Assembly (NCBI GenBank): GCA_040005235.1
Contig: JBDTZG010000003.1
Coordinates: 32,001-96,000 of the forward strand
Source of the DNA: Acidobacteriota bacterium
GTDB lineage: Bacteria > Acidobacteriota > Thermoanaerobaculia > Multivoradales > UBA5704
Direction of reading: 5' to 3'
Length of the DNA: 64,000 nucleotides
Below are positions 42,840 through 59,063 of the stretch, in pieces; within the stretch, counting starts at the first letter, position 1, and the number at the start of each line of letters is the position of its first letter. The notes beneath the pieces are model-generated. The model ran no database searches, had not been told where the DNA came from, and saw only the letters and a program-made list of their open reading frames with translations. The translations under genes were made by a program, and so were the position numbers.

Positions 42840-43892
42840 CTAGTGCAAATACACCGGCCGGGCGATCACCTCGCCGCGCCGGTGACGTAGATCGATCGTC
42901 GCTTCTCCGGGCTTGAATCCCGAGAAGTCGTCGCGGTTAACTGTGAGCACGTACCAGCCGGAGATCGAACGGGCGAGCCGGTGGGTGGCGAGGCCGGGGA
43001 GCCGGAAAGTGCTCGAATAGGTGCCGCCGGTTGCGGCGGCCACCCCTTCGAGCCCCACTTCTAAAGAGTGAGAGTCCGCGCTGGTGACGTCGAGCACAAA
43101 GACCGAAGTCTTCGCGGCGGCCAAAGCGGCTACGGCCGGACGGAAATCCGGCGTCATGCGGACGCTGCCCCCGAAACCGAATCGACCTAAGCCCCAACCG
43201 AGATAGATCATCGTCTTCTCGCCGGGCAGAGGGCTGAGCGCCTTCGCGGTCATTTCGAGCGCCCGCTCAGGGCTCGCGACCCGGAGCGCCTCGGCGAAGT
43301 CGAATTGTGCGGCCAAGGAGGGGTGCGGGGACCGCGGGACGTCCACCTCCGGCGTGTAGACCCTCGCCCGATCGACCGCATCGAGCACGGCTTGCCGGTC
43401 GGTGGTGAAATCGAGCCAGAGCTTAAGATGGGAATCGAACGAAACCACCGCGACGCGATCCGACGGAGCGAAGCTCGCCACCAGCTCGCGGGTGTAGGGG
43501 CGCAAGCGCAACTGGCCGGAAATCCGAGTCGGGTTCAAATCGGCCTGGACGAAGAAGACGACCAGCTTGCCAGGCGGCCGCACCGCTTGCTCTGCCGGCT
43601 TCCACCGCTCGAATTCGGTGACCTCCACCTCCGGCAGGCTCGCTTCGGACTCCGAGGAAACCCAATCGACGCCGGTCACTGGAATTTCCCGCCCATGGAC
43701 CGTAATCCGGAAGTCATCGGGGACGAGCCCGAGGATCGGCCGGCCGTCGCCGTCCACCACTCGCACGACGATCGTGTCCAGCGCGACGGTGATCGCATCG
43801 TCGAAATGCTCTTGCGGCGAATCGGTCGCCGCGGCGCCCTTCACCGTAAAGATGAAGCCAGCCACCAGGAGAAGGAAGGTCAAGCGTCGCAT
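42840..43892 (-). CDS. VWFA-related secreted protein (acidobacterial type)
   Basis: VRVVDGDGRPILGLVPDDFRI, DRVAVVSFD, LPGEKTMIYL, AAATGG. Confidence 0.85.
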   Translation of the reverse strand: MRRLTFLLLVAGFIFTVKGAAATDSPQEHFDDAITVALDTIVVRVVDGDGRPILGLVPDDFRITVHGREIPVTGVDWVSSESEASLPEVEVTEFERWKPAEQAVRPPGKLVVFFVQADLNPTRISGQLRLRPYTRELVASFAPSDRVAVVSFDSHLKLWLDFTTDRQAVLDAVDRARVYTPEVDVPRSPHPSLAAQFDFAEALRVASPERALEMTAKALSPLPGEKTMIYLGWGLGRFGFGGSVRMTPDFRPAVAALAAAKTSVFVLDVTSADSHSLEVGLEGVAAATGGTYSSTFRLPGLATHRLARSISGWYVLTVNRDDFSGFKPGEATIDLRHRRGEVIARPVYLH

Positions 43893-44057
43893 GATCTTTG
43901 AGTCTAACCTGTGCAGAATCACTCGTTGGAGCGGTCCCGTCCCACGAAACGCGAGGTCCGGCCCGAGATCGAGCTTCCGTCGGGCTCCTCCATCCGGACG
44001 CGAGCTCCTTCGCAGTCCGATCTAAACCTCCAACCCTGCGGCGATTCCACCTCTGCG

Positions 44058-47000
44058 CTACTTACCCGGCTCTCGATCGGCTTCCTCCAGGGTCGGCCCC
44101 ACGGGCACTTCAAGGGGGTGCATGACCGGACGTCCCCAGCTCAAGACGTGCCCGATGCGTCGTTCCTGGTTGATGTCCTGGCTTGCGATTCGCACCAATT
44201 CCTCGCGGACGCTGGGGCGAAAATCCAGCAAGCCAGGCCACCAGCCGTTCTCCGACCGGGGCGTCAGAGAGGCAACGACCAGGTTGCCGCCGATGTTCCG
44301 ATCCAGCTCCTGCGCGCGGGAAAACAAAAAGGAGAGCACTTCGGGCGAGGAGCGGAAAAGTTGTCCGCCTTCGAGCTGCGCCTGCTGCAGGGCATGACGG
44401 AATCCGCCGGGTGGCGGCACCGCGTCGTCGAGGGGATCCGGCGAGGCGTTGAGGATCAGCACCTGCCGCGCGTCGGACATGGACGCGGCTTCGAGCGGGA
44501 TGTTGTGCGCATACCCTCCGTCGACGAGATGGACCTCGCAGCCGTCGGGCAGGCGGGCCAGATGCGGAGGGAAGACCGGAAAGGCCGATCCCGAAGCAAA
44601 GACCGCATCGAGGGCACGGGCGGGCGCCGGCTTACGGAAGACCTGCCACGGGCCCCCGGTCGGCGTGCCGCAGCCTTCCTGGCCTTCGAAGCAAAAATAG
44701 AGTCCTCCGGCATTGATGGTCCGGGCCGAAGAGCATTGCGTGGCGCGGAGCAGCGTGCCGGTCACCACCAGGTTTGCCTGGAAGCTGCCGGTCCACAACT
44801 GATCCTCCGAAAGCGCCTCTCCGAAGGCACGGACCGCCCGAACGTTGCTATAGACGGCCGGCGCCACCAGCAGCACCCAACAAGCTATGCAGAACGCAAA
44901 CAGGCCGACCATCGTGCCGGCAAGGCTCGTCGTGACCACGCCGCGCCGATCCCTCATCAGCCCGTCGAGGCCTCCCCGCAGGAAGCACGGGACGCGCCTG
45001 CGCGGGGCATGAGCGAAGAAGAGCAGGGCGACGGACGCGACCACCCCCGCACCGATTAAGCCGGACCAATAGGGGCCGGTCAACTCGAGCATCGATCCGT
45101 ACCCGGTGGCGGTCGCCGCCACGAGGGGAAGAAACGCGGCGCCGATTACGGTCGCAGCCGCCGCCATCGCGGCGACATAGCTGTGATCTCCGCGCACGGC
45201 CAAACCCCAGCGACCGCTTAGGGCACCGGTAGCAAGCGCCGCGGCGATGACGAACACTCCGGCGCTCGCCAGTACCGACAGGCCGGGCAACGGGACTCTA
45301 TGCAAGCCTTCCGGCAGACCGCGGAGCCAATGTCGCGCGACCAACGCGATACCCAGAAGCTGGACACCGAAAAGGAGGCCGACCGCGGCGAGCCGGCCGA
45401 GCAGCCTTGCCACGTCCGTGGGACTTTCATGCTTGCTCTCTCGAATGACGCAGGTCATGCAGAAATGCGCGAGGATACAGGTCAGGATGTAAAACACGCC
45501 CTCGGCCGCGGGAACGGTTTCCATATATTCGCTGCGCGTCGTGACGATCGCGACCGCTCCGGCAACCACGATCAGGAGCGCGATGGCCAACACCCTCCAA
45601 CTGCCGGCTTTCTGGACCGAATCCGGAGGGCAGGCGCCATATCCCCACCAATTGAAGGTCTTGGCTCCGAGAAAAACGAGCTGCATCACGAAGAGCAAGA
45701 CAAAAATGCTCAGCAGGCGGGGAAAATCGGCCATCGGAAAGAGCGGCTTGCCGGACGTCGACTCGACGATTTTCCGCAGCGACCCCACCTGCGGCAGCTG
45801 GGCAGCGAAGAATGCCAGCATCGCGCCGCCGGAAGTACCTATGATCGTATGCACGATGAGCGGGTCGGTAGAGTTCTTCGGAATGGTTTCGGCTTGCCCG
45901 GTCGGGATTTCTGGGTTACGGAGCTGCCGGGACGATTTGCGCCCCGCCCCATACAACTCGTCGAGCAGGACCGTCTGGTACAAGCTCTTGACGCCACCAC
46001 CCGAAAGCACGAGCGCCAGTCGCGCGGTACGGGAATTCTCCTGATCCTGGCGCAGGAATGCCATCGTTTCGTCGATGGTGAAATCGAACAGTCCGTTCTC
46101 ATACCAGCGGGTATTGAGTCGTGCGAGCTCCGGGTCCTGGGTCGCATCGTGGCTGAACAACCGGCTGACTTCAGCACGGAATCGGTCATGGGTCGCGGGG
46201 TTGTACCAGAGGACCGATTTGTATCTTCCTCCCCGCGTTCCCATGTTCTTCTGGATTTCCGGCGCTAGGAAAACATTCCCCAAGCTGGCGCGATCCACTA
46301 CTTCACCGCCGGCGACCTCCTCCACCAATTGACGGCGAACCAGAAGGACGTCATTGGGGATGCTGGGAGAATCCTCCGGCAAGCGACCTGCCCGGTAGTG
46401 CATCGGTGAGCCAAAGCGCGCGGAGTCAGGAGGGTGATAGGAAAACGTGATCGTCGAAGACGCATCCTCTGCGGGCAGGGCGCCATGCATCAGCGTCAAG
46501 TGTGCGTTTTCGAAGTAGAGCCGCCAGAAGCGGGATCGCTCGACCTTGTCAATTTTGCCTTGATCCAGCCAGTTCTCCACATACAACGCGGGCATGATGA
46601 AGCCGGAAGTAGAAAGGTGGGCCACCAGGTCGACCCGAAACTCCGCGCGGATCTTCTCGATCTCTTTCCGAACGGCCGGCGCATCGGGCTCTCCTTTCCG
46701 CACCGCGACGAGCAACGAAGAGAGGTACTGGTCGAAGCCCGTAATCGGGTCGTCGCGCCAGCGCCCCGAAGCCACGATCCAGGGATAATGCGCGGCAATG
46801 TCCTGTGAGTCGCCCGCCTCGGTGGGGATCCCCGAGCCCTCAGAGAATTCCAATATCGAGAGGGCTTGGCTGTCGCGTTCGAGCAACATAGCCATGAAGG
46901 GGGACACGATCGCCGCGTCGATCTGGCCTGTTTTGAACCAGGATAAGATCTGATAGTAGTTGCCGAACGCCAATTCGAAATCAAGTGGAACTTTGAGCGA

Positions 47001-47261
47001 AGGCACATCCTTCGACTTTTGCGCAACCATCCCCAGATACCCATCGACCACCCGAAGGTTGTCCTGCTCGGATTTAGAGGCGGCGAAGTTGAACGTCGTA
47101 TATCCGACCCGCACCACACGCGGCTTCGGACGGGCTGGGAGGGTTTCCGGCTGCGCGGCGGATGCAACAACCGTGTCGGCCTGCGAACGAGCCGCCGCTC
47201 CGGACAGCAGGACGGTCAAAAGACCCGAGATCACAAAGGCTCCTTTGCTTGAGGAAGTCAT
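44058..47261 (-). CDS. Fusion of a PhnD-like solute-binding domain and a patatin-like phospholipase interrupted by ~8 TM segments
   Basis: Signal peptide; SBP-like GQIDAAIVSP, HLSTSGFIMP, SIPND; patatin SGGGVK, GTSGG, then TM block, then ASGSAFPVFP, VDGG. Confidence 0.8.
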   Translation of the reverse strand: MTSSSKGAFVISGLLTVLLSGAAARSQADTVVASAAQPETLPARPKPRVVRVGYTTFNFAASKSEQDNLRVVDGYLGMVAQKSKDVPSLKVPLDFELAFGNYYQILSWFKTGQIDAAIVSPFMAMLLERDSQALSILEFSEGSGIPTEAGDSQDIAAHYPWIVASGRWRDDPITGFDQYLSSLLVAVRKGEPDAPAVRKEIEKIRAEFRVDLVAHLSTSGFIMPALYVENWLDQGKIDKVERSRFWRLYFENAHLTLMHGALPAEDASSTITFSYHPPDSARFGSPMHYRAGRLPEDSPSIPNDVLLVRRQLVEEVAGGEVVDRASLGNVFLAPEIQKNMGTRGGRYKSVLWYNPATHDRFRAEVSRLFSHDATQDPELARLNTRWYENGLFDFTIDETMAFLRQDQENSRTARLALVLSGGGVKSLYQTVLLDELYGAGRKSSRQLRNPEIPTGQAETIPKNSTDPLIVHTIIGTSGGAMLAFFAAQLPQVGSLRKIVESTSGKPLFPMADFPRLLSIFVLLFVMQLVFLGAKTFNWWGYGACPPDSVQKAGSWRVLAIALLIVVAGAVAIVTTRSEYMETVPAAEGVFYILTCILAHFCMTCVIRESKHESPTDVARLLGRLAAVGLLFGVQLLGIALVARHWLRGLPEGLHRVPLPGLSVLASAGVFVIAAALATGALSGRWGLAVRGDHSYVAAMAAAATVIGAAFLPLVAATATGYGSMLELTGPYWSGLIGAGVVASVALLFFAHAPRRRVPCFLRGGLDGLMRDRRGVVTTSLAGTMVGLFAFCIACWVLLVAPAVYSNVRAVRAFGEALSEDQLWTGSFQANLVVTGTLLRATQCSSARTINAGGLYFCFEGQEGCGTPTGGPWQVFRKPAPARALDAVFASGSAFPVFPPHLARLPDGCEVHLVDGGYAHNIPLEAASMSDARQVLILNASPDPLDDAVPPPGGFRHALQQAQLEGGQLFRSSPEVLSFLFSRAQELDRNIGGNLVVASLTPRSENGWWPGLLDFRPSVREELVRIASQDINQERRIGHVLSWGRPVMHPLEVPVGPTLEEADREPGK

Positions 47262-48424
47262 GCGATCTCGCCTCCGTGGGACTCATCGGTAGCCTTCGAC
47301 CTTCGAACGGCAAAGGCTCCCGCCGCGACCACGAACATGCCGAGCGTGAAAAGGCACCAGAGAAGATAGGGTCTCCAACCGGCCTCATCCTTCTCGCCCC
47401 GATCCGCCAGAGCAATGTACCAGCCTCCCTCGACATCGCTCGACAGCCGGCGGACGAAAGCGATGGGACTCGTCTGACGGGACTCTCCCAGAGGCCACGA
47501 CGCTTCGGCTCCCGGTGCGAGCCCTTTAAGCGGGGGAACGGCCCCTTTGCCAAAGAACGCGTCCTGCGAGAAGACTCTGATCCCTTGACCGTCGAGGAGC
47601 TCCGTGTCGATGTCCTGATCGTGCGCCGCGAAAGCGAGAAGCCCCTCCAGTTCTTTCGGATCGACGACCGCCTTGAGAACGCCGACCGCACGCCCGTCGG
47701 CGGTCACCACCGGCAGCACCACGTCATAGCCGAACAGCCCCGCGCTGGGATCCCAATCGACCCCCCCGATGTGGACGCACTCCATGGGGAGATGGCGGCA
47801 GCGAATCAATGCCTTCTTTAGCCTCGCCGCTTCGGCCAGCTTCGCTGTTTCCCATGCAACTGTCTTCGCCGCCTCCGTCAGGTTTGGATCTGACGATACT
47901 TCCGGCTCCTTCGGCTCGAGGCCCTTCGGCCACCAGGGGTCGTCATCTTGCCGATAGTCCTCGGTACGATTCGAAGCCGCGATCACCCTTCCCTTCAGAT
48001 CACTGAGGAAGATTTCGCGAAAGGCGCTCCCGCTGGCATCCTTTAATTCTGCGAAGTAAGTGGAAAGAGGGTTGTTTTCTTGGATTTCTTTGAACGGATC
48101 TTCTTTCCCCTGACTCGCGAAGGTCGTCCAAAACTTTTCCCTATCCTCGTCGGCCTGGGTGCGGGCAATCTTCGTCGACTCTTCAGCCAGTTCGACGACC
48201 TCGGGAATCACCGTGAGGTAGCCCGTCACGCCGACCACCCGCTTGATATAGGTGTCGATGAGCGACGCCAGGCGTTCGGTCTCGACGGACATCTCCTCCG
48301 GTCTTTCATGTTCGCCTGCCACGCGCAACGCCCAGAGGGACTGAAAGGCGATCGCGATGACGAAGACGGGACCGAGGACCAACAGCCAACGCCAAGTCGA
48401 CAAAATCCCTCGAAGCTGCGACAT
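47258..48424 (-). CDS. Membrane protein with extracytoplasmic Cache domain and no cytoplasmic output domain
   Basis: TM1, EIFLSDLKGRVIAAS...YRQDDDPWW, VVLPVVTADGRAVGVLKAVV, TM2, 15-aa tail; ATGA overlap with the next gene. Confidence 0.75.
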   Translation of the reverse strand: MSQLRGILSTWRWLLVLGPVFVIAIAFQSLWALRVAGEHERPEEMSVETERLASLIDTYIKRVVGVTGYLTVIPEVVELAEESTKIARTQADEDREKFWTTFASQGKEDPFKEIQENNPLSTYFAELKDASGSAFREIFLSDLKGRVIAASNRTEDYRQDDDPWWPKGLEPKEPEVSSDPNLTEAAKTVAWETAKLAEAARLKKALIRCRHLPMECVHIGGVDWDPSAGLFGYDVVLPVVTADGRAVGVLKAVVDPKELEGLLAFAAHDQDIDTELLDGQGIRVFSQDAFFGKGAVPPLKGLAPGAEASWPLGESRQTSPIAFVRRLSSDVEGGWYIALADRGEKDEAGWRPYLLWCLFTLGMFVVAAGAFAVRRSKATDESHGGEIA

Positions 48425-48778
48425 CGGCCACCTCTTGCCTGAACGCCAGAGTAAGTCTGGAGCGATGGTCTTCGTCCGCTCCGCGAAAGTGAGCTTCAAC
48501 GCGGCGCTTCGCGGAGAAGCGGAAGGAGTAGACGGACGCACTCTCCAAAGATCCTCCGATCGGCGGCCGAACGGTGAATTACATTCGGGCCTCCGCCGCC
48601 GTGATACGCTCTCGCTACCCCATTCGGACCGAGCGGAACGACCGCCGCTTCAAGGAGGCACCGGCTGGCACGGGTTCTTTTGAGCTTAGGACAGCGGTTC
48701 TAAGGGGAGGCGGTAGGAGCTGACCGTAACCTTTGGGACGGCGCCGCGGCCAGCTCGGCGTCGGCGACGGATCGTCTT

Positions 48779-51700
48779 TCACATTTTTCCCGGAGGCACG
48801 TCTTTGTCTCGGTTCGGTCTCTCCTCTGACTCGTCCGTATAACCCTTCACAAACACTGCTTGCAAGATTGGCTTATCGCCGGCGATTATGGCCACAACAT
48901 GGACACCGTAGCTCAATCCTTCCGACGTTGAGATCTTCGTGCTCAACTTCCCATCCTTTCCAAAACGCACATCCTTGTTGACCGCAATATCGTCGATGGT
49001 CACTACCAGTGGTGCGCCGATGAGCTCGGAATCCGGCTTCGCTCCCGCAGCCCACAGCCACACGATTCCATCAGATCCCAGAATCGGAAGACTTGGGCTG
49101 GGAATACTCGTGCTCACGAACAACGAAGGATGGATAAGGTTGGACGTTGGCGACTCGTGTGTCTGCAACAGGTCCGCAACCGACTGAATCTGATCCTTCA
49201 GGTTGTCGACTACCTCGATCGGTTGATCGTTCGGCTCCGTCATCGATGTGATCTGAGCGAATCCCTTTCGAATAAAATCTGAATCCGACGAGATGATGGC
49301 GTCAAGTGTTCCGTTCTGCATCACCAGACCATTGACGACCTCTTTGTTCTTCAGCGCAGCCTGAGCAGCTATCTCACCGTCGAATCCAATTCCCTTGTCG
49401 CTTTCCTTAACGGGAAGCGCTGGGGAATCATCTGCCTTCCCGAGGTATCGCATAAAGTTGCTTCCCGGCGAAACCGTGATCTCCTCGACCTTGCCGTCCG
49501 ACCCGAGCTTGAGCCCGTTGATATGTCCATTGCTTATCACCACGGTGTCCCGAGCGTTGTAGGGAAGCGCGCTCTGGATAGCCATGGAGTTGCCACGAAG
49601 GCGAACATTACATCTCGATCGCGGACAGTAGTCGGCGACCGGAAACGGCGCGCGAATGTGGCGAAAGTCCAGCTTCCACAGTCCTCTGCCATAGCTGGAA
49701 GCGAATCCTTCGTTGTTACTAGTCATAAAGAAGCCGGTGCAATAAAGGATTGCTTCGGAGCCCCGGACGTTGGCCCACGTTCTGCCGCCGTCGCCGCTCC
49801 AAATTATGCCCGCCTCGCGAGTGCCAATGAGGATCCGCTGCGAATCAAACGGATCAAAGTAGATCGTCGTAACCTCCATCCCGTATGCGTGCTTCCCGGG
49901 GTCGTTCGCATCGAAGGTTCCCAGTCGGTATTGGTGGTATCTTGTTACTAGATTCGTGAGCTCAACATCGGTCTCCCAAGTGCTGCCGCCGTTCCTCGTA
50001 ACCTTGATTACACCGTTCACGATGTCGGGCGCGATGATGAAGGCCGCATTGAGCGGATCAACGCCGAAAACCGCCGAGTAGTCGAAATTCGTAGCTCGCA
50101 TCCCCAGACTTCCGTTGTCAGGAAGATAGATAATCTGCGACGCGCCGTAAGACTGGTTGGTTCTTAGATCGAACCGGAAAAGACCGAGGCGTTTGTCAGC
50201 GCCGGAGGCGTCTGAGAATGAGCCATATACGAATTGGTGGTCCCCATTCCTCGACGGCTTTGGAAAACTGCTTGGAGTAAAGGGTGTCTCGCCTATCATG
50301 AGCCAGTGGTCACCGTTGTCTTCGGATTTGTAAATCTCTGGATACGATTCGTGCGGCAATCGATAGCGCACCCAGGTGCGCGGGCTGACGTAGAAGGGCG
50401 CCGCAAAATCCGCGAGGTAGCCGGTGCGGGAGCCGCGCACGTTTTCCGGCACCTCGCGCTGCGCGTCCAGGTTGCCGTTGGCGAACATGCTCCTCCACCT
50501 GGGATCCGGTCGGACTGAATTCCACGCTACCGTTGCCATCCCAGGATCGGAGACGTAAGGAGCGACCTGAGCGTAAAAACCTTCGGGTGAGCTCGCCCGG
50601 GGCCAGGTGACTCCACCATCAGGGGAGCTCCAAAGCGAACCATTGTCCTGAGTTGCGAAATAAAGCGACAGATCGGCTCGATCATAGACTGTCCCCGCTA
50701 GTGCGGTGATTTGATAGGAGTTAAGACCCGATCCTCTTACCGCCGCGCGCTCCCAATGTGTGGAGCTCGAGTCCGTCGGTTTGAAAACGCCGCCGTCTGA
50801 TCCATATAGCAGAGGCAAGCCCGCCGAATTGAGTGCCATGAATCCGGAGTCATCATGGATTCCGTCGTCGCGGCTAAAGCTCCTCCAGTTGAACGGTCCC
50901 GTTCGCAAGGCGTCTGCGATGTCCGCGCAAGTGCGACGTAATAGCTGGACACCTGTGCCGGCCCAAATTTCGAAGCCGTTAGCGCCCGCAGGCCGGGCCG
51001 AAATGCGAACGAACGGATTTCGGCTCAGCCGGCCGGCTGCCGGCATAGGGATTGGCGTGAATCGGTTCGCTCCCATCTCATAGAGAAACAGATGGTCGTG
51101 ATCCTTCAATACGAATACCTTGTCCAGATCTCCCGGCCAGGCATCGACCTGTTTGAACGAGCCATCGACGTTGAAGTTGCCCCGAAAAACATTGTCCCAG
51201 GTGCCCTCCGGCGTCAGCCGAAACACGCCAAGCTCTGACAACAAAACTGCTCGGTTGTGCGCCAACGCTACGATGGAATGAGGTCCCCCCCCGACGGGTG
51301 TGTCCGTCCAGTTGTCGCCATTGTCCGTACTGGTGGCTACCCCGAAGTCCGTGGCGACGTATATCTTTCGCCGGTTGTCCGGTGCCACGCTGATACCGTT
51401 CGCTGCGCCATGCCAGCCAAAGCTTGCGGCCGTCCAAGAATCTCCGCCATCGTGGCTCACCCAAATTCCGCTGTCGTCGACCATCTTATTGGTGCCCTGA
51501 ACCGTTGCGATGAGAGTGTCACCCTCTGCATAGGCAACGTCCTTCGACGAGATGGCTCTAAGATTTGTGAGATGGCGCCAGTTAGCACCGCCGTTTGACG
51601 TCTTCCAGAGGCCTCCGAATTCGGTGGAGAAGACGATCTCGGAATCATTATTGGGTTTCACGGCAATGGCATGAGTCCGCCCGCCGCACAACGGAGACCG

Positions 51701-51850
51701 ATCGAAAGTCGGCAGAAGGTAGGGTGGGAACTCGGCCACGCTTTGCGCTAAGGCGGAGCCCATGAAGAGTGTGACCAAGCCGCAAGCAACCATTGCGCTC
51801 ATGCAGTGCAGCCGGGGCTTCCTACGCGGGCCAAATGGTCGGTTGGACAT
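48779..51850 (-). CDS. Large secreted BNR/Asp-box beta-propeller protein (sortilin/GH74-like)
   Basis: Repeated KTSNGGANW, SHDGGDSW, STDNGDNW, SPDGGVTW, SEDNGDHW, SYGRGLWK; RBS GGAGG; AT-richer codons. Confidence 0.8.
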   Translation of the reverse strand: MSNRPFGPRRKPRLHCMSAMVACGLVTLFMGSALAQSVAEFPPYLLPTFDRSPLCGGRTHAIAVKPNNDSEIVFSTEFGGLWKTSNGGANWRHLTNLRAISSKDVAYAEGDTLIATVQGTNKMVDDSGIWVSHDGGDSWTAASFGWHGAANGISVAPDNRRKIYVATDFGVATSTDNGDNWTDTPVGGGPHSIVALAHNRAVLLSELGVFRLTPEGTWDNVFRGNFNVDGSFKQVDAWPGDLDKVFVLKDHDHLFLYEMGANRFTPIPMPAAGRLSRNPFVRISARPAGANGFEIWAGTGVQLLRRTCADIADALRTGPFNWRSFSRDDGIHDDSGFMALNSAGLPLLYGSDGGVFKPTDSSSTHWERAAVRGSGLNSYQITALAGTVYDRADLSLYFATQDNGSLWSSPDGGVTWPRASSPEGFYAQVAPYVSDPGMATVAWNSVRPDPRWRSMFANGNLDAQREVPENVRGSRTGYLADFAAPFYVSPRTWVRYRLPHESYPEIYKSEDNGDHWLMIGETPFTPSSFPKPSRNGDHQFVYGSFSDASGADKRLGLFRFDLRTNQSYGASQIIYLPDNGSLGMRATNFDYSAVFGVDPLNAAFIIAPDIVNGVIKVTRNGGSTWETDVELTNLVTRYHQYRLGTFDANDPGKHAYGMEVTTIYFDPFDSQRILIGTREAGIIWSGDGGRTWANVRGSEAILYCTGFFMTSNNEGFASSYGRGLWKLDFRHIRAPFPVADYCPRSRCNVRLRGNSMAIQSALPYNARDTVVISNGHINGLKLGSDGKVEEITVSPGSNFMRYLGKADDSPALPVKESDKGIGFDGEIAAQAALKNKEVVNGLVMQNGTLDAIISSDSDFIRKGFAQITSMTEPNDQPIEVVDNLKDQIQSVADLLQTHESPTSNLIHPSLFVSTSIPSPSLPILGSDGIVWLWAAGAKPDSELIGAPLVVTIDDIAVNKDVRFGKDGKLSTKISTSEGLSYGVHVVAIIAGDKPILQAVFVKGYTDESEERPNRDKDVPPGKM

Positions 51851-51913
51851 GGCAACCTCCTTCGGAGTGGGGATGCCCGCGAAGTGTAGCACCGCCCGGT
51901 CATCGAACCGGCC

Positions 51914-55654: not shown

Positions 55655-58618
55655 CTACGGCTTATAGCTCCGCACCACCTGCATCCGGTGCCCGGCCGCA
55701 TCGCGAACGGCGATAGTGAACACCGGCCGCTCCGAAGTCGTCACCTTGCGCGGCAAGGTGAGGCGGAGGATTCCCCCTTCCGGGTTGATCGACTTCCCCA
55801 TCGCGAGGTTTCCGCCGACGGGAACGTTGCCAAGCCGCAGGTTGCAGGTCACCGTCAAGCTCCCCGGAATGACGCCGCTTTCGACATCGAAGGCCGCGAT
55901 CTCCAGAATACGGAACGAGCGAGCGACGCGGGCGCGGAGGACCGAAGGACGCACCACCAGCGTCGGCCGTTGGTCGTCCTCCAAGAAACCCCACGGTTGG
56001 CCGAAATCGATCGGGGCTCCGAGGTCGATCCAGCGAGCGAGGGTCATCTTCTCGTCGACCATCATGCCGGGGACTCCGACTCCCGCGGGGTGGGCTGTCG
56101 TGGCGGCAAAATCGAGGTCGTCGGTGCGGTCGGCGTTGGTTCGGCCGTCGAGGCGCTGGCCCCAGACTTTCCAAAGCAGCAGGCTCTGGCGCGATTGGAA
56201 GGCCCGGACGTAGCGGGTGAGCTGGGGCACGAACCAGAGGCCGTACTGTGACGGCGGCGGCTCGGACAGCTCGCTGGTCATGTCTTCAATCAGTTGCCAA
56301 TAGGTGCGCGGCCAGGTGCCGTCGCGTTCGATGGTGCCGGCCGCCGCCGTGAGCGGCAAGCCGGCCGCCGGGCTCGCCGCGCCGTGGCACAAGGCGCAGC
56401 GGCGCTCGAGGATCGGCAGCACGTCGCGCCGGTATTCGACGGTCGTGGCGTGGCCGGGAATCAGACGGATCGCGGTGGCTCCCCCGGCGTCCAGGGTCAG
56501 CAGCGGCGTGGTGCGCGCGAGGTCGGGCATCGGGAAATCCGGGCGTGCCGCCGCGGTGGTTTCGAAATCGAGCGGTTCGAGGCTGTGGGCGTGGCAGCCG
56601 CCGCAGTCGTAGCGCGCTTCGCCTGGGCGGAGCTGGTGCCAGGTTTGGGCCATGTTGAGCACCATTCCGCGCCGGTCGAGGGTCTGGAAGGTGAGCGCGA
56701 TATCGGCCGGTACCTTGGCGAGGAAACTCGTGTCCGCGTGGAGTGTGCCGTCCGGATGGCGGACCGGAGGGGCATTCGGTTTCTTCACCAGGATCTCGCC
56801 CAGGATGCGCATCCGCTCGCCGCCGATCACCGAGTATTTCGGTCCGTTCGCCGGATAGCTGCGGTCGGTCTGTGCCTGCTGCATCAGGACCCGGACGGCG
56901 ACCACGTCGTCGTCCGAGTAGATCCCCGCGTCCGTCCCCTGGCGGGTCCAGCGGAGTGGATTCTGCGTCGGCTCGTCGAACGGATCGCGATCGGTTTGAA
57001 ACGGGCCGAGTGCGCCTTCGCTCTCGCGCCAGAGGAGCGACGAGCTGCCGATCAAGCCGAACGGCTCTCCCGGGGTCAACCTCTCGGCGCGGATCGCGGC
57101 GTCCGAGAGTTCAGGCCGCGCGGGCGGCGCGTCGATTCCGTACAGCTGGCGCCACGAAACGACCGGCCGCGGCCATGCCAGGTTGTATCCCGGCTCATAC
57201 AGAATGGTGATCAACCCCGGCGGTTGCCCCGCCATGTCGGCCGCCGGAGTCGCGACCGGCTCGCCGTCGGGAAACAACACGATCCGGCCGTGCGGCCAGG
57301 GGAACGCGCTGCCCGAGTTGACGTAGGCGCCGTTGTGGTTGACCGGCCCGGGCGCGTAGACCGCGAGCAGGTCGGCTTTCGCCGGATCGCCTTCGACGCT
57401 CGGCGTCGCCGCGGGATGGGTGAGCTTGCCGCGCCGGTCTATGCCCGCGCAGTTCTCCGGCCCGGCCGAGGCGTAAGGGTTGTCCTCCCGCCCGGGGCAG
57501 GGGGCGGGATAGTCGTCCGGCGTGGTCCAGGGCGCGAGCAGGCGCTGGCCGATCCGCTCGAACGGGATCGCGCCCGAGGACGGTTCGGGATCAGACGTTG
57601 CGAAATCGGGTCCCGCCGGGTCGATCGGATAGCGGATCAGGTCGCCGAAGCCGTTGTCGTTCAGGTTGTAGTAGCGGCAAACCACCAGATCACCGCCCGG
57701 CATCTGGGTCATGAAGTGATGCGCGAGCGCGTTCTCGCTGAAACCGGACAGGCTGTTCCAGGTCCGGCCGTCGGGAGCGATCACCCAGAGCGCGAACTGC
57801 CGCGTGTCGCGCAGGCCCTGCTCTTCCCAACTGGTGAAGGCGATCCGGCCGTCCAGCAGCGCCATCGGGTGGAGCGCCATCGCGACGTTCAGCGGTCCGA
57901 TCGGCTCGACGTTTGCGCCGTCGGAGTCCATTGCGAACAGTTGCAGAGCGCGCTGGACCGACGACATCGCCTTCGGCGGCAGAAAGTCATCGCGCGTGGA
58001 GGTGAAGACGATCCGGTTGCCGGCTACCCAAGTTCCTCCCGTGTTGAACACGCCGATCCGCGGATGGTTGCTTCCCGGATCGTTAGGCCCGAACCGCGCG
58101 CCGTTGCCCGTGTTCGGCGTCAACTGCTGGCGGGTCAATCGCACGAGCGCCCGGCTCGCCAGATCGAGCTTGTAAAGATCCGCGCCGCGGCGCGACAGGC
58201 CGCCGCGCTGATCGTTCCGCTCGGTCAGATCGTGGTACCAGGTGAACAGCACCGACCGGCCGTCGAAAGACACGTTCGGATCGGCGACCGAGCCGACCGA
58301 CAACGGTTTGCCCGCAGGCGTGTCGATCTGCCCTCGATAGCGCTCCAGCGGAAAAAGCACCTCGCGCGCGCCGGAGGTCTTCATCAGCACGAGCTGCGCG
58401 CCGGGATCGGGAATCAACGGCCGCACCACATCCGGCCAGACGCTGTTCGCCGCCTCCGGCCCGGGACCGAAGTAGGGCGCGCGAACGTAGATCAGCTCGT
58501 ACGGCAGAGGGCGGATGATCTCCTGGGCGGCGGCGGCGAACGGCACCGCCGCTCCCGCGAAGGTGAGGGCGAGGGCGAGGGCTGAGACCCAACGGAAAAC
58601 CCATGTTCGCTGGCGCAT
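55655..58618 (-). CDS. Secreted HzsA-related beta-propeller/cytochrome c protein with two CxxCH motifs
   Basis: Signal peptide from MRQRTW; DPNVSFDG, IVFTSTR propeller; SFLAKVPAD...FQTLDRRGM...QLRPGE..CGGCH; VLPILERRCALCH; ARWIDLGAP. Confidence 0.8.
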   Translation of the reverse strand: MRQRTWVFRWVSALALALTFAGAAVPFAAAAQEIIRPLPYELIYVRAPYFGPGPEAANSVWPDVVRPLIPDPGAQLVLMKTSGAREVLFPLERYRGQIDTPAGKPLSVGSVADPNVSFDGRSVLFTWYHDLTERNDQRGGLSRRGADLYKLDLASRALVRLTRQQLTPNTGNGARFGPNDPGSNHPRIGVFNTGGTWVAGNRIVFTSTRDDFLPPKAMSSVQRALQLFAMDSDGANVEPIGPLNVAMALHPMALLDGRIAFTSWEEQGLRDTRQFALWVIAPDGRTWNSLSGFSENALAHHFMTQMPGGDLVVCRYYNLNDNGFGDLIRYPIDPAGPDFATSDPEPSSGAIPFERIGQRLLAPWTTPDDYPAPCPGREDNPYASAGPENCAGIDRRGKLTHPAATPSVEGDPAKADLLAVYAPGPVNHNGAYVNSGSAFPWPHGRIVLFPDGEPVATPAADMAGQPPGLITILYEPGYNLAWPRPVVSWRQLYGIDAPPARPELSDAAIRAERLTPGEPFGLIGSSSLLWRESEGALGPFQTDRDPFDEPTQNPLRWTRQGTDAGIYSDDDVVAVRVLMQQAQTDRSYPANGPKYSVIGGERMRILGEILVKKPNAPPVRHPDGTLHADTSFLAKVPADIALTFQTLDRRGMVLNMAQTWHQLRPGEARYDCGGCHAHSLEPLDFETTAAARPDFPMPDLARTTPLLTLDAGGATAIRLIPGHATTVEYRRDVLPILERRCALCHGAASPAAGLPLTAAAGTIERDGTWPRTYWQLIEDMTSELSEPPPSQYGLWFVPQLTRYVRAFQSRQSLLLWKVWGQRLDGRTNADRTDDLDFAATTAHPAGVGVPGMMVDEKMTLARWIDLGAPIDFGQPWGFLEDDQRPTLVVRPSVLRARVARSFRILEIAAFDVESGVIPGSLTVTCNLRLGNVPVGGNLAMGKSINPEGGILRLTLPRKVTTSERPVFTIAVRDAAGHRMQVVRSYKP

Positions 58619-58826
58619 TTCTTGGAAGAGGATACGTTGGGAACTCCGCGTTCGTCGAGGGCGATGATCGACCAGCCCGAAGGATCTCCTCGCCGGCCGC
58701 ATCGCATCCGGCGCGGAGGAAGGAGCACCCCGCTCGCAGGGGGGAGGATTTGCCGGTCCCCGGGACCACGGCGGAACTACATTCCATTCGTAGAGCACCT
58801 TCGCCAAGATCCGCCCCTTTCCTGGC

Positions 58827-58870
58827 TGGAACGACGCTTGCAAAAGGCTGTTTTGCCTGGTGACCAGGCA
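58827..58870 (+). promoter_or_regulatory. Sigma54 promoter plus 5'UTR hairpin (copy 2)
   Basis: TGG-AACGACGCTT-GCA; hairpin TGCCTGG-TGA-CCAGGCA at 58854-58870. Confidence 0.65.
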
Positions 58871-58895
58871 CGGACCCCAGCAAAGGACTTCTCCA

Positions 58896-59063
58896 ATGAT
58901 CAGAATCCGACTCGGAAGCCCCGCAGCCCTTGAGCTTGCCCTCTCCGCCGCCCTATTGCTCGCCACCCTGCCGGCCCGCGGGGACGACGACGCGATCCAC
59001 GGCGCGAACGAGAACGACTTGATTGCCGGAAACTCGATCCTCAACGAAGCTCGGGCGGCTTAG
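58896..59063 (+). CDS. Small secreted peptide, 55 aa (copy 2)
   Basis: MIRIRLGSPAALELALSAALLLATLPARGDDDAIHGANENDLIAGNSILNEARAA; RBS AAAGGA. Confidence 0.7.
   Translation: MIRIRLGSPAALELALSAALLLATLPARGDDDAIHGANENDLIAGNSILNEARAA

Follow-up and report, generated by a model that had tools for sequence, protein, structure and literature searches.

Patatin-like Ser-Asp acyl hydrolases are defined by a Gly-rich oxyanion motif with an Arg or Lys residue (PMC10291501), and patatins are described as having four conserved blocks, including a Ser-containing block followed by D-G-[AG] (PMC3125207). PlpD of Pseudomonas aeruginosa (PDB 5fqu) and a cUMP-AMP-activated phospholipase (PDB 9iom) carry GGGx[KR], GxSxG, ASxxxP and DGG, in the same order as the protein analyzed here. 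PlpD additionally carries POTRA and β-barrel domains, while CapV and CapE of the cyclic-oligonucleotide-based antiphage signaling system (CBASS) are soluble effectors of ~320 amino acids (aa). As for Cache sensor domains, outputs are known for all families except SMP_2 and are almost always cytoplasmic, as summarized by Upadhyay et al. (PMC4822843). Solute-binding proteins (SBPs) bind dCache-type domains in LuxP-LuxQ and HptA-HptS, and AioX, a protein of PF12974, acts together with the Cache-like AioS (PMC8050422). In LapD-LapG and DvhD-DvhG, the periplasmic domain of an inner-membrane protein (a dCache domain in DvhD) controls a periplasmic hydrolase, and the dCache domain of DvhD has been modelled in direct contact with the protease DvhG that it regulates (PMC13090378). 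Here, we analyzed a window of 64,000 nucleotides from an Acidobacteriota bacterium (contig JBDTZG010000003.1, positions 32,001 to 96,000), in which a transmembrane (TM) dCache protein lacking any output domain (P0002) is encoded immediately ahead of a 1067-aa protein (P0001). The latter is best read as an inner-membrane, periplasm-facing patatin-type acyl hydrolase, a prediction made from its sequence, and the former as a clade-specific accessory of this enzyme that possibly gates it in response to a ligand. The features of the pair are as follows.

47258..48424, minus strand: gene for the output-less TM-dCache-TM protein P0002, 388 aa (ORF call starting at ATG, with an in-frame GTG further upstream)
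48430..48434, minus strand: Shine-Dalgarno-like GAGGT ahead of the Cache ATG (sequence)
48329..48385, minus strand: first TM segment of the Cache protein, aa 14-32 (hydropathy)
47363..48328, minus strand: predicted periplasmic dCache region, aa 33-354 (invariant RE..D..G..AAS.RT...Q....WWP, C209/C216, D225 and K251)
47306..47362, minus strand: second TM segment of the Cache protein, aa 355-373, then an unconserved 15-aa tail (hydropathy)
47271-47275, minus strand: Shine-Dalgarno-like GGAGG ahead of the enzyme start (sequence)
47258..47261, minus strand: ATGA overlap of the Cache stop with the enzyme start (sequence)
44058..47261, minus strand: gene for the predicted SBP/split-patatin/8-TM membrane enzyme P0001, 1067 aa (ORF call)
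47178..47261, minus strand: signal peptide, ~aa 1-28, probably cleavable, no lipobox Cys (judged by eye)
46092..47123, minus strand: PhnD/PtxB-like solute-binding domain, ~aa 47-390 (Y103, S217-T218-S219, H259, D304; hhalign)
45987..46001, minus strand: patatin oxyanion motif GGGVK, aa 421-425 (motif and alignment)
45825..45839, minus strand: nucleophile motif GTSGG, starting at aa 475, with S477 (motif and alignment)
44853..45716, minus strand: eight-helix membrane insert, aa 516-803 (Kyte-Doolittle peaks; family-conserved E726, W732, W795 and P801, with Y804 just after)
44127..44861, minus strand: C-terminal patatin half, aa 801-1045 (ASGS.FP block, D914-G-G, Cys 843/857/864/908)
44514..44522, minus strand: catalytic Asp motif DGG, aa 914-916 (motif and alignment)

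The original prediction, made from the sequence letters, had described a TM-Cache-TM gene with a 15-aa tail that overlaps a 1067-aa ORF through ATGA, the latter encoding a signal peptide, a PhnD-like domain, GGGVK, GTSGG, about eight TM segments and DGG. The first part was borne out by the ORF calls, hydropathy and a dCache_1 match, and the second by Pfam, hhalign and Kyte-Doolittle profiles. The Pfam Patatin model (PF01734) matched P0001 in two stretches with 35.3 bits against a cut-off of 27.7. The presumed nucleophile S477 was kept in all 126 near-full-length family proteins and D914 in 123 of them, the remaining three having gaps. Among 164 aligned proteins, GGGV[KR] was found in 152 (11 gaps and one GSGVR) and G[TN]SGG in 154 (10 gaps). 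In P0001, Ser and Asp are 437 residues apart, and an ASGSAFP block at 889-895 precedes DGG914. The profile of the C-terminal half matched residues 159-199 of 9iom (E 2.6e-4) as well as PlpD 5fqu (E 3.2e-5), and that of the N-terminal half matched residues 23-80 of 9iom weakly (E 0.82), so that both halves map in order onto complementary parts of one solved patatin. Very probably, the two halves would refold into a single Ser-Asp domain that the helical bundle holds on the outer leaflet. Compared with PlpD and 9iom, the Ser and Asp of P0001 are split around an α-helical 8-TM bundle, and a PhnD-like domain is added at the N-terminus. Unlike PlpD and the type Vd proteins, P0001 had no Pfam match to POTRA or an Omp85 β-barrel, its insert being composed of hydrophobic helices.

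The best PDB and defence-library matches of P0001 were CBASS-type phospholipases. The enzyme also has a patchy spread: 17 of the 401 class genomes contain it (own genome counted), and two genomes of the same genus have no counterpart. Both observations favor a ligand-gated suicide phospholipase for phage defence, comparable to CapV/CapE. We consider this highly improbable, however. The matches were limited to the catalytic motifs and fell far below cut-off (8.9 vs 200 bits for NF041079, 23.5 vs 400 for another), and P0001, with its 1067 aa, signal peptide and 8 TMs, is unlike the soluble effectors. Its predicted active site would be periplasmic, away from cytoplasmic nucleotide signals. Moreover, no plasmid match was found for P0001, and no cyclase, CD-NTase or defence family was found among the seven window neighbours scanned, which do not include every window ORF.

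The side of the membrane on which the active site lies was deduced from Kyte-Doolittle hydropathy, using the 150 of 164 proteins that contained all three motifs. Between Ser and Asp, we counted 6 peaks in 3 proteins, 7 in 14, 8 in 85, 9 in one, 10 in 5, 11 in 3, 12 in 38 and 13 in one, an even number in 131 of 150 inserts with modes at 8 and 12. The 12-TM inserts correspond to the 8-TM form with four more central helices, and therefore parity is kept. An internal 4-TM repeat within the insert was also sought and found no support, only overlapping neighbouring hairpins having scored. Odd loops (1, 3, 5, 7) contained on average 4.1 Lys/Arg residues versus 1.2 in even loops, and this excess was seen in 84 of 85 8-TM proteins and in all 38 12-TM proteins; the P0001 loops have 3, 1, 4, 3, 2, 0 and 7. 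As loops rich in Lys and Arg lie on the cytoplasmic side (positive-inside rule), both ends of the insert would be outside the cytoplasm. Of 124 members, 102 have a hydrophobic stretch at the N-terminus, whereas a control window gave one such stretch in 124. In a selection of 27 family proteins that were long or partial, additional C-terminal domains were present in some: an OmpA-like domain in P0069 and, weakly, in P0182, and a Bmp-type SBP in P0053 (after a degenerate HAD) and P0064 (after a region without assignment). These fusions fit an outside C-terminus, as do the invariant Cys residues, four across the clade in the enzyme C-terminal half and two in the Cache domain. An odd TM count or a cytoplasmic active site was rejected on peak parity, the N-terminal stretches and the OmpA/Bmp fusions. 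Consequently, the originally proposed arrangement, an even TM count with both patatin halves and the binding domain outside, held up on parity and Lys/Arg loops, and at this hydropathy level both catalytic halves are predicted to be extracytoplasmic.

The N-terminal region of the enzyme resembles the phosphonate-binding proteins. Its profile aligned with a PhnD alignment in hhalign at 87.8% probability (E 3.3e-6), the PhnD/PtxB identity of the target being confirmed against PDB, and PF12974 matched five of 22 family members at E≤0.1 (best 3.9e-14). In PhnD and PtxB, an STS-H motif and a Tyr bind the phosphorus oxygens (PMC5700983). The residues S217-T218-S219 and H259 of P0001 fall on this motif and Y103 falls near the Tyr. 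In 17 full-length clade proteins, Y103, S217 and S219 were conserved in 17, H259 in 16 and T218 in 15 (S/T); the His is lost in distant family branches. GpxB, a member of the same SBP family, binds glycerol-1- and glycerol-3-phosphate (PMC12718374). Because these positions are kept and because of the GpxB precedent, the predicted ligand likely has a phosphoryl group. In contrast to PhnD, PtxB and GpxB, with which it shares profile similarity and the Tyr/STS/His phosphoryl positions, the SBP domain of P0001 is divergent, contains insertions and is fused to an enzyme, and no ATP-binding cassette transporter operon was found beside the enzyme gene.

To describe the family, we searched 50%-identity representatives with an enzyme profile and obtained 524 matches at E≤1e-3, of which 242 clusters reached E≤1e-30. 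The best 150 of the 524 matches were studied more closely; the weak tail may include ordinary patatins. A word-indexed search found 21 homologs of P0001 besides itself, and the top ESM Atlas match was a 737-aa Patatin and Phosphonate-bd cluster. Members were seen in metagenome-assembled genomes (MAGs) of Woeseiaceae, Planctomycetota, Pseudomonadota and Sandaracinaceae, and in two of 401 genomes sampled across the phylum, own genome counted. The Sandaracinaceae member (L007:7286-10540) is divergent, with a canonical PhnD domain (E 1e-12) and a much shorter insert of about 4 TMs; it is possibly closer to the ancestral form. In another member, P0060, the N-terminus is extended by 416 aa that include four hydrophobic segments. 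We searched for Cache-patatin fusions, but the Cache profile had no significant match in the 164 family proteins, and the P0060 extension is not a Cache domain. Two loci had disrupted reading frames. In L001:9775-14138, enzyme and HAD ORFs overlap in different frames, which may be a frameshifted fusion or an assembly indel, and in L024:1187-4337 a frameshift splits the enzyme gene, separating the TM insert from the Asp half. Scans of P0001 gave no Pfam or NCBIfam model covering the TM insert. The literature search returned no description of the split-patatin architecture or of its pairing with Cache, in agreement with the original prediction, which had not recognized it; supplementary domain-architecture tables could hold one, and the consulted part of the lipocone paper treats patatins only in other contexts. 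The polytopic split-patatin family is thus a real and apparently undescribed variant of the patatin family.

The partners of the enzyme in related genomes give indications about its role. A C-terminal HAD phosphatase domain is fused in 11 of the 21 close homologs. Its DxD and GD motifs were intact in all 11 clade fusions and degenerate in some outliers. These domains are HAD-IB-like below cut-offs, with a protein of unknown function as best PDB match (4gxt) and phosphorylcholine phosphatase at E 0.23. The immediate neighbour of the enzyme gene is a Hydrolase_4 gene, placed tail to tail, in eight of 16 other genomes of the class and, on the same strand, upstream or downstream, in nine of 29 collection loci (seven distinct), many of the other collection loci being short. 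These neighbours, found with a profile built from six of them (five Pfam-confirmed), span several phyla and both orientations. For three of them, the best NCBIfam match was lysophospholipase L2, below cut-off, and they appear lysophospholipase- or monoacylglycerol-lipase-like. Taken together, the HAD fusions and these neighbours point to a possible function in phospholipid breakdown or recycling. P0001 would probably deacylate glycerophospholipids or lysolipids on the outer leaflet, where its PhnD-like domain would recognize a phosphoryl group, either of the substrate head group, of a glycerophosphate-type product or of phosphate itself. Subsequent reactions in the recycling of lipid or phosphorus would fall to the HAD fused in relatives and, in other branches, to the lysophospholipase-like neighbours. 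Several enzymes with a patatin domain act as transacylases (PMC10291501), and polar and aromatic residues are conserved in or near the bundle (E587, E726, W732, W795, Y804). P0001 could accordingly be mainly a transacylase or acyltransferase moving acyl groups from membrane lipids to periplasmic acceptors such as lysolipids or envelope glycans, with the bundle presenting the donor. This seems decidedly unlikely, however, as the recurring partners are hydrolases (HAD, Hydrolase_4) and no conserved glycan-biosynthesis neighbour was noticed among the selected neighbours scanned with Pfam.

The Cache protein belongs to a family of its own. ESM Atlas assigned P0002 to dCache_1 clusters at 0.98, with proteins of ~375 aa that are commonest in Acidobacteriota; like the acidobacterial VWA gene nearby, this points to a probable host of that phylum. 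The original prediction had allowed that its homologs might continue into kinase domains, which would make this copy a truncated one. In P0002 and the 18 homologs found among proteins of 213-679 aa, the tail after the second TM segment has 4-26 residues in 19 of 19 cases, with no output domain. No longer homolog (680-2000 aa) was found at E≤1e-10, which is weak evidence. A truncated receptor was therefore ruled out. The presumed pocket residues are common to longer receptors that, by eye, look MCP-like (methyl-accepting chemotaxis protein), and therefore the dCache domain is predicted to probably still bind a ligand. The dCache_1AA and dCache_1AM ligand classes have an aromatic pair and a terminal Asp (PMC10589655). 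P0002 has W164/W165 and no Asp at the presumed terminal position (GVLKAV), as judged by eye. The Cache profile matched only TlpA in PDB (E 0.04), and no viral-contig relative of P0002 was found. SMP_2 is also a Cache-clan domain without a known output; by comparison, it is a single Cache related to BarA/GacS in its published description (PMC4822843), whereas the double domain of P0002 is dCache_1-like and its gene is associated with a single enzyme gene.

The association of P0002 with the enzyme was then followed through the family. A tree built from the patatin halves, with 165 rows for proteins of at least 850 aa, placed the window protein in a clade of 21 rows (support 1.0), and HAD is found on the deeper branches of this clade. 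The Cache gene was directly upstream of the enzyme gene in five of five informative clade loci (the window, L009, L010, L012 and L013). No other clade locus includes upstream DNA, the sequences of L008, L011 and L014 starting within the gene. All five informative loci have an RTGA junction, although in L012 and L013 translation may instead begin at an ATG located 2-11 bases further on, and the abutting pair is kept down to 38-40% enzyme identity and 28-32% Cache identity. Seven of the 18 Cache matches each shared with one of the 21 enzyme matches a longest contig of identical size. One of these is L009, and for the others we infer six further Cache-enzyme pairs whose linking DNA was not seen. 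The pairing counts leave out three Cache matches on contigs >4.4 kb and eight full-length clade enzymes. Among 401 genomes, a Cache ortholog was found in the own genome only, the other seven matches having E values of at least 1e-15. Since both P0001 and P0002, present in one copy each in this genome, belong to conserved families, the observation is not due to chance. Neighbourhood conservation and the lack of output domains in Cache homologs therefore came out as the original prediction would have it. Its two-protein system stood in part: the pair is conserved within the clade, yet the enzyme is not inherently two-protein, most of the family being without a Cache gene.

From these data, we propose that in this clade the co-translated TM-dCache-TM protein would be a dedicated subunit that docks on the enzyme, most plausibly on its SBP domain, and tunes enzyme activity according to a periplasmic ligand, the signal never crossing the membrane. 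We estimate the probability that P0002 is a bound, ligand-responsive subunit of the enzyme at about 0.45. Docking is plausible because of the SBP-Cache precedents (LuxPQ, HptA/HptS, AioX-AioS) and of DvhD-DvhG. As in the former three, an SBP and a membrane-anchored Cache are encoded side by side here, AioX being of the same Pfam family. In contrast to these systems, no cytoplasmic kinase is present, which leaves the SBP-fused enzyme as the sole candidate output; therefore, information would either travel in the opposite direction or remain outside. Likewise, LapD-LapG and DvhD-DvhG differ in being inside-out cyclic di-GMP switches with cytoplasmic domains and protease targets, while P0002 lacks a cytoplasmic input and its target would be of the lipase type. 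The full scheme, in which a dCache receptor devoid of a cytoplasmic part would bind a ligand and switch a membrane-embedded split patatin through the PhnD-like domain so that the outer leaflet is remodelled or degraded, is tentative and, taken as a whole, doubtful. No signal would cross the membrane in it, because receptor and effector are on the same side.

Several results weigh against this reading or parts of it. No Cache gene was near the enzyme outside the clade, either in the 16 other class genomes or in distant loci; as most of the family is without a Cache neighbour, the enzyme does not need the Cache protein. Conserved residues specific to the clade numbered only 23, were scattered and did not form an obvious docking patch. 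The enzyme was absent from all ten genomes tested that have a stand-alone output-less dCache (those of nine of 12 stand-alone loci and that of L038), the same profile having matched in G000 and G040; since output-less dCache proteins occur without the enzyme, being output-less does not imply an enzyme partner. Domain assignments were partly below cut-off: dCache_1 on P0002 reached 31.6 bits (E 1.6e-7, cut-off 45) and PF12974 on P0001 17.9 bits (cut-off 27; E 0.056 for the whole protein and 0.0021 for the domain alone). Neither the SBP-region profile nor the L007 SBP had a PDB match. With a stricter hydropathy cut-off, the fraction of even inserts dropped to 87 of 112. The HAD fusion and the adjacent Hydrolase_4 gene are both absent at this genome's enzyme gene. 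Finally, no signal peptide was seen at the five Hydrolase_4 N-termini inspected, and these neighbours are therefore probably cytoplasmic, in which case the product would need to flip.

Stand-alone TM-dCache-TM proteins of ~360-385 aa also occur in other classes of the phylum (L031-L037, L039-L041, L043, L044), with varied neighbours and a conserved tail, D-[PA]-[HR]-[LF]-[ED]-x-[IL]. Of 14 inspected loci of related dCache proteins, 13 encode an output-less TM-dCache-TM protein. That such proteins are found in the same phylum without the enzyme suggests that P0002 might not be the enzyme's regulator. Instead, it could be the sensing half of a split receptor that passes its signal via the TM helices to an unlinked kinase or chemoreceptor and perhaps senses enzyme products, or a co-transcribed detached sensor of the SMP_2 type, SMP_2 being a detached Cache module in the published account (PMC4822843). 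The pocket subfamily shared with longer receptors agrees with this view. We find it somewhat unlikely, however, because the two genes still abut at enzyme identities down to ~40% and Cache identities of 28-32%, because the tail shows no conservation and can be only 4 residues long, unlike the conserved DPHLE-type tail of the stand-alone family, and because no kinase or MCP gene was found among the seven window neighbours scanned.

In another branch (L024, L092 and L098), a different small multi-TM gene follows the enzyme gene and is coupled to it, suggesting exchangeable accessory subunits. Multi-TM accessories of 250-280 aa with no NCBIfam match were observed at L046:4673-5503, L052:713-1483 and L024:4353-5099. 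This second kind of coupling, together with the translational coupling of P0002 as the first gene, would also suit a constitutive subunit for assembly, stability or self-protection, such as an inhibitor guarding the cell's own membrane, with no ligand sensing. Such a role is unlikely given that the presumed ligand-pocket residues are invariant and common to longer receptors. We retain the ligand-responsive subunit as the preferred explanation for the Cache protein.

Regarding the genomic setting, no sigma-70-like promoter was found for the pair, and terminator-like counts were at chance level. An acidobacterial gene with a VWA domain flanks the pair, downstream in the window (42840-43922) and upstream in L010 (7565-8662). 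A functional link along α2δ-like lines was not supported, the VWA gene being adjacent only in the window and L010 and in a different order. Upstream of the pair, a sortilin/BNR-like gene (window 48779-51892) has a GC content of 0.565, lower than the 0.61-0.65 of its neighbours, and a third-codon-position GC content of 0.65, and was possibly acquired separately. A large ORF (window 55655-59044) matched the middle domain of hydrazine synthase alpha and, weakly, cytochrome c.

With this family, patatin enzymes would gain a polytopic, periplasm-facing class comprising hundreds of divergent clusters in little-studied bacteria. As a candidate route, the split-patatin family could serve the turnover of phospholipids in the outer leaflet or the scavenging of carbon and phosphorus from lipids. 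Furthermore, a conserved output-less dCache protein tied to one periplasmic enzyme offers a testable case for the role of orphan Cache domains.

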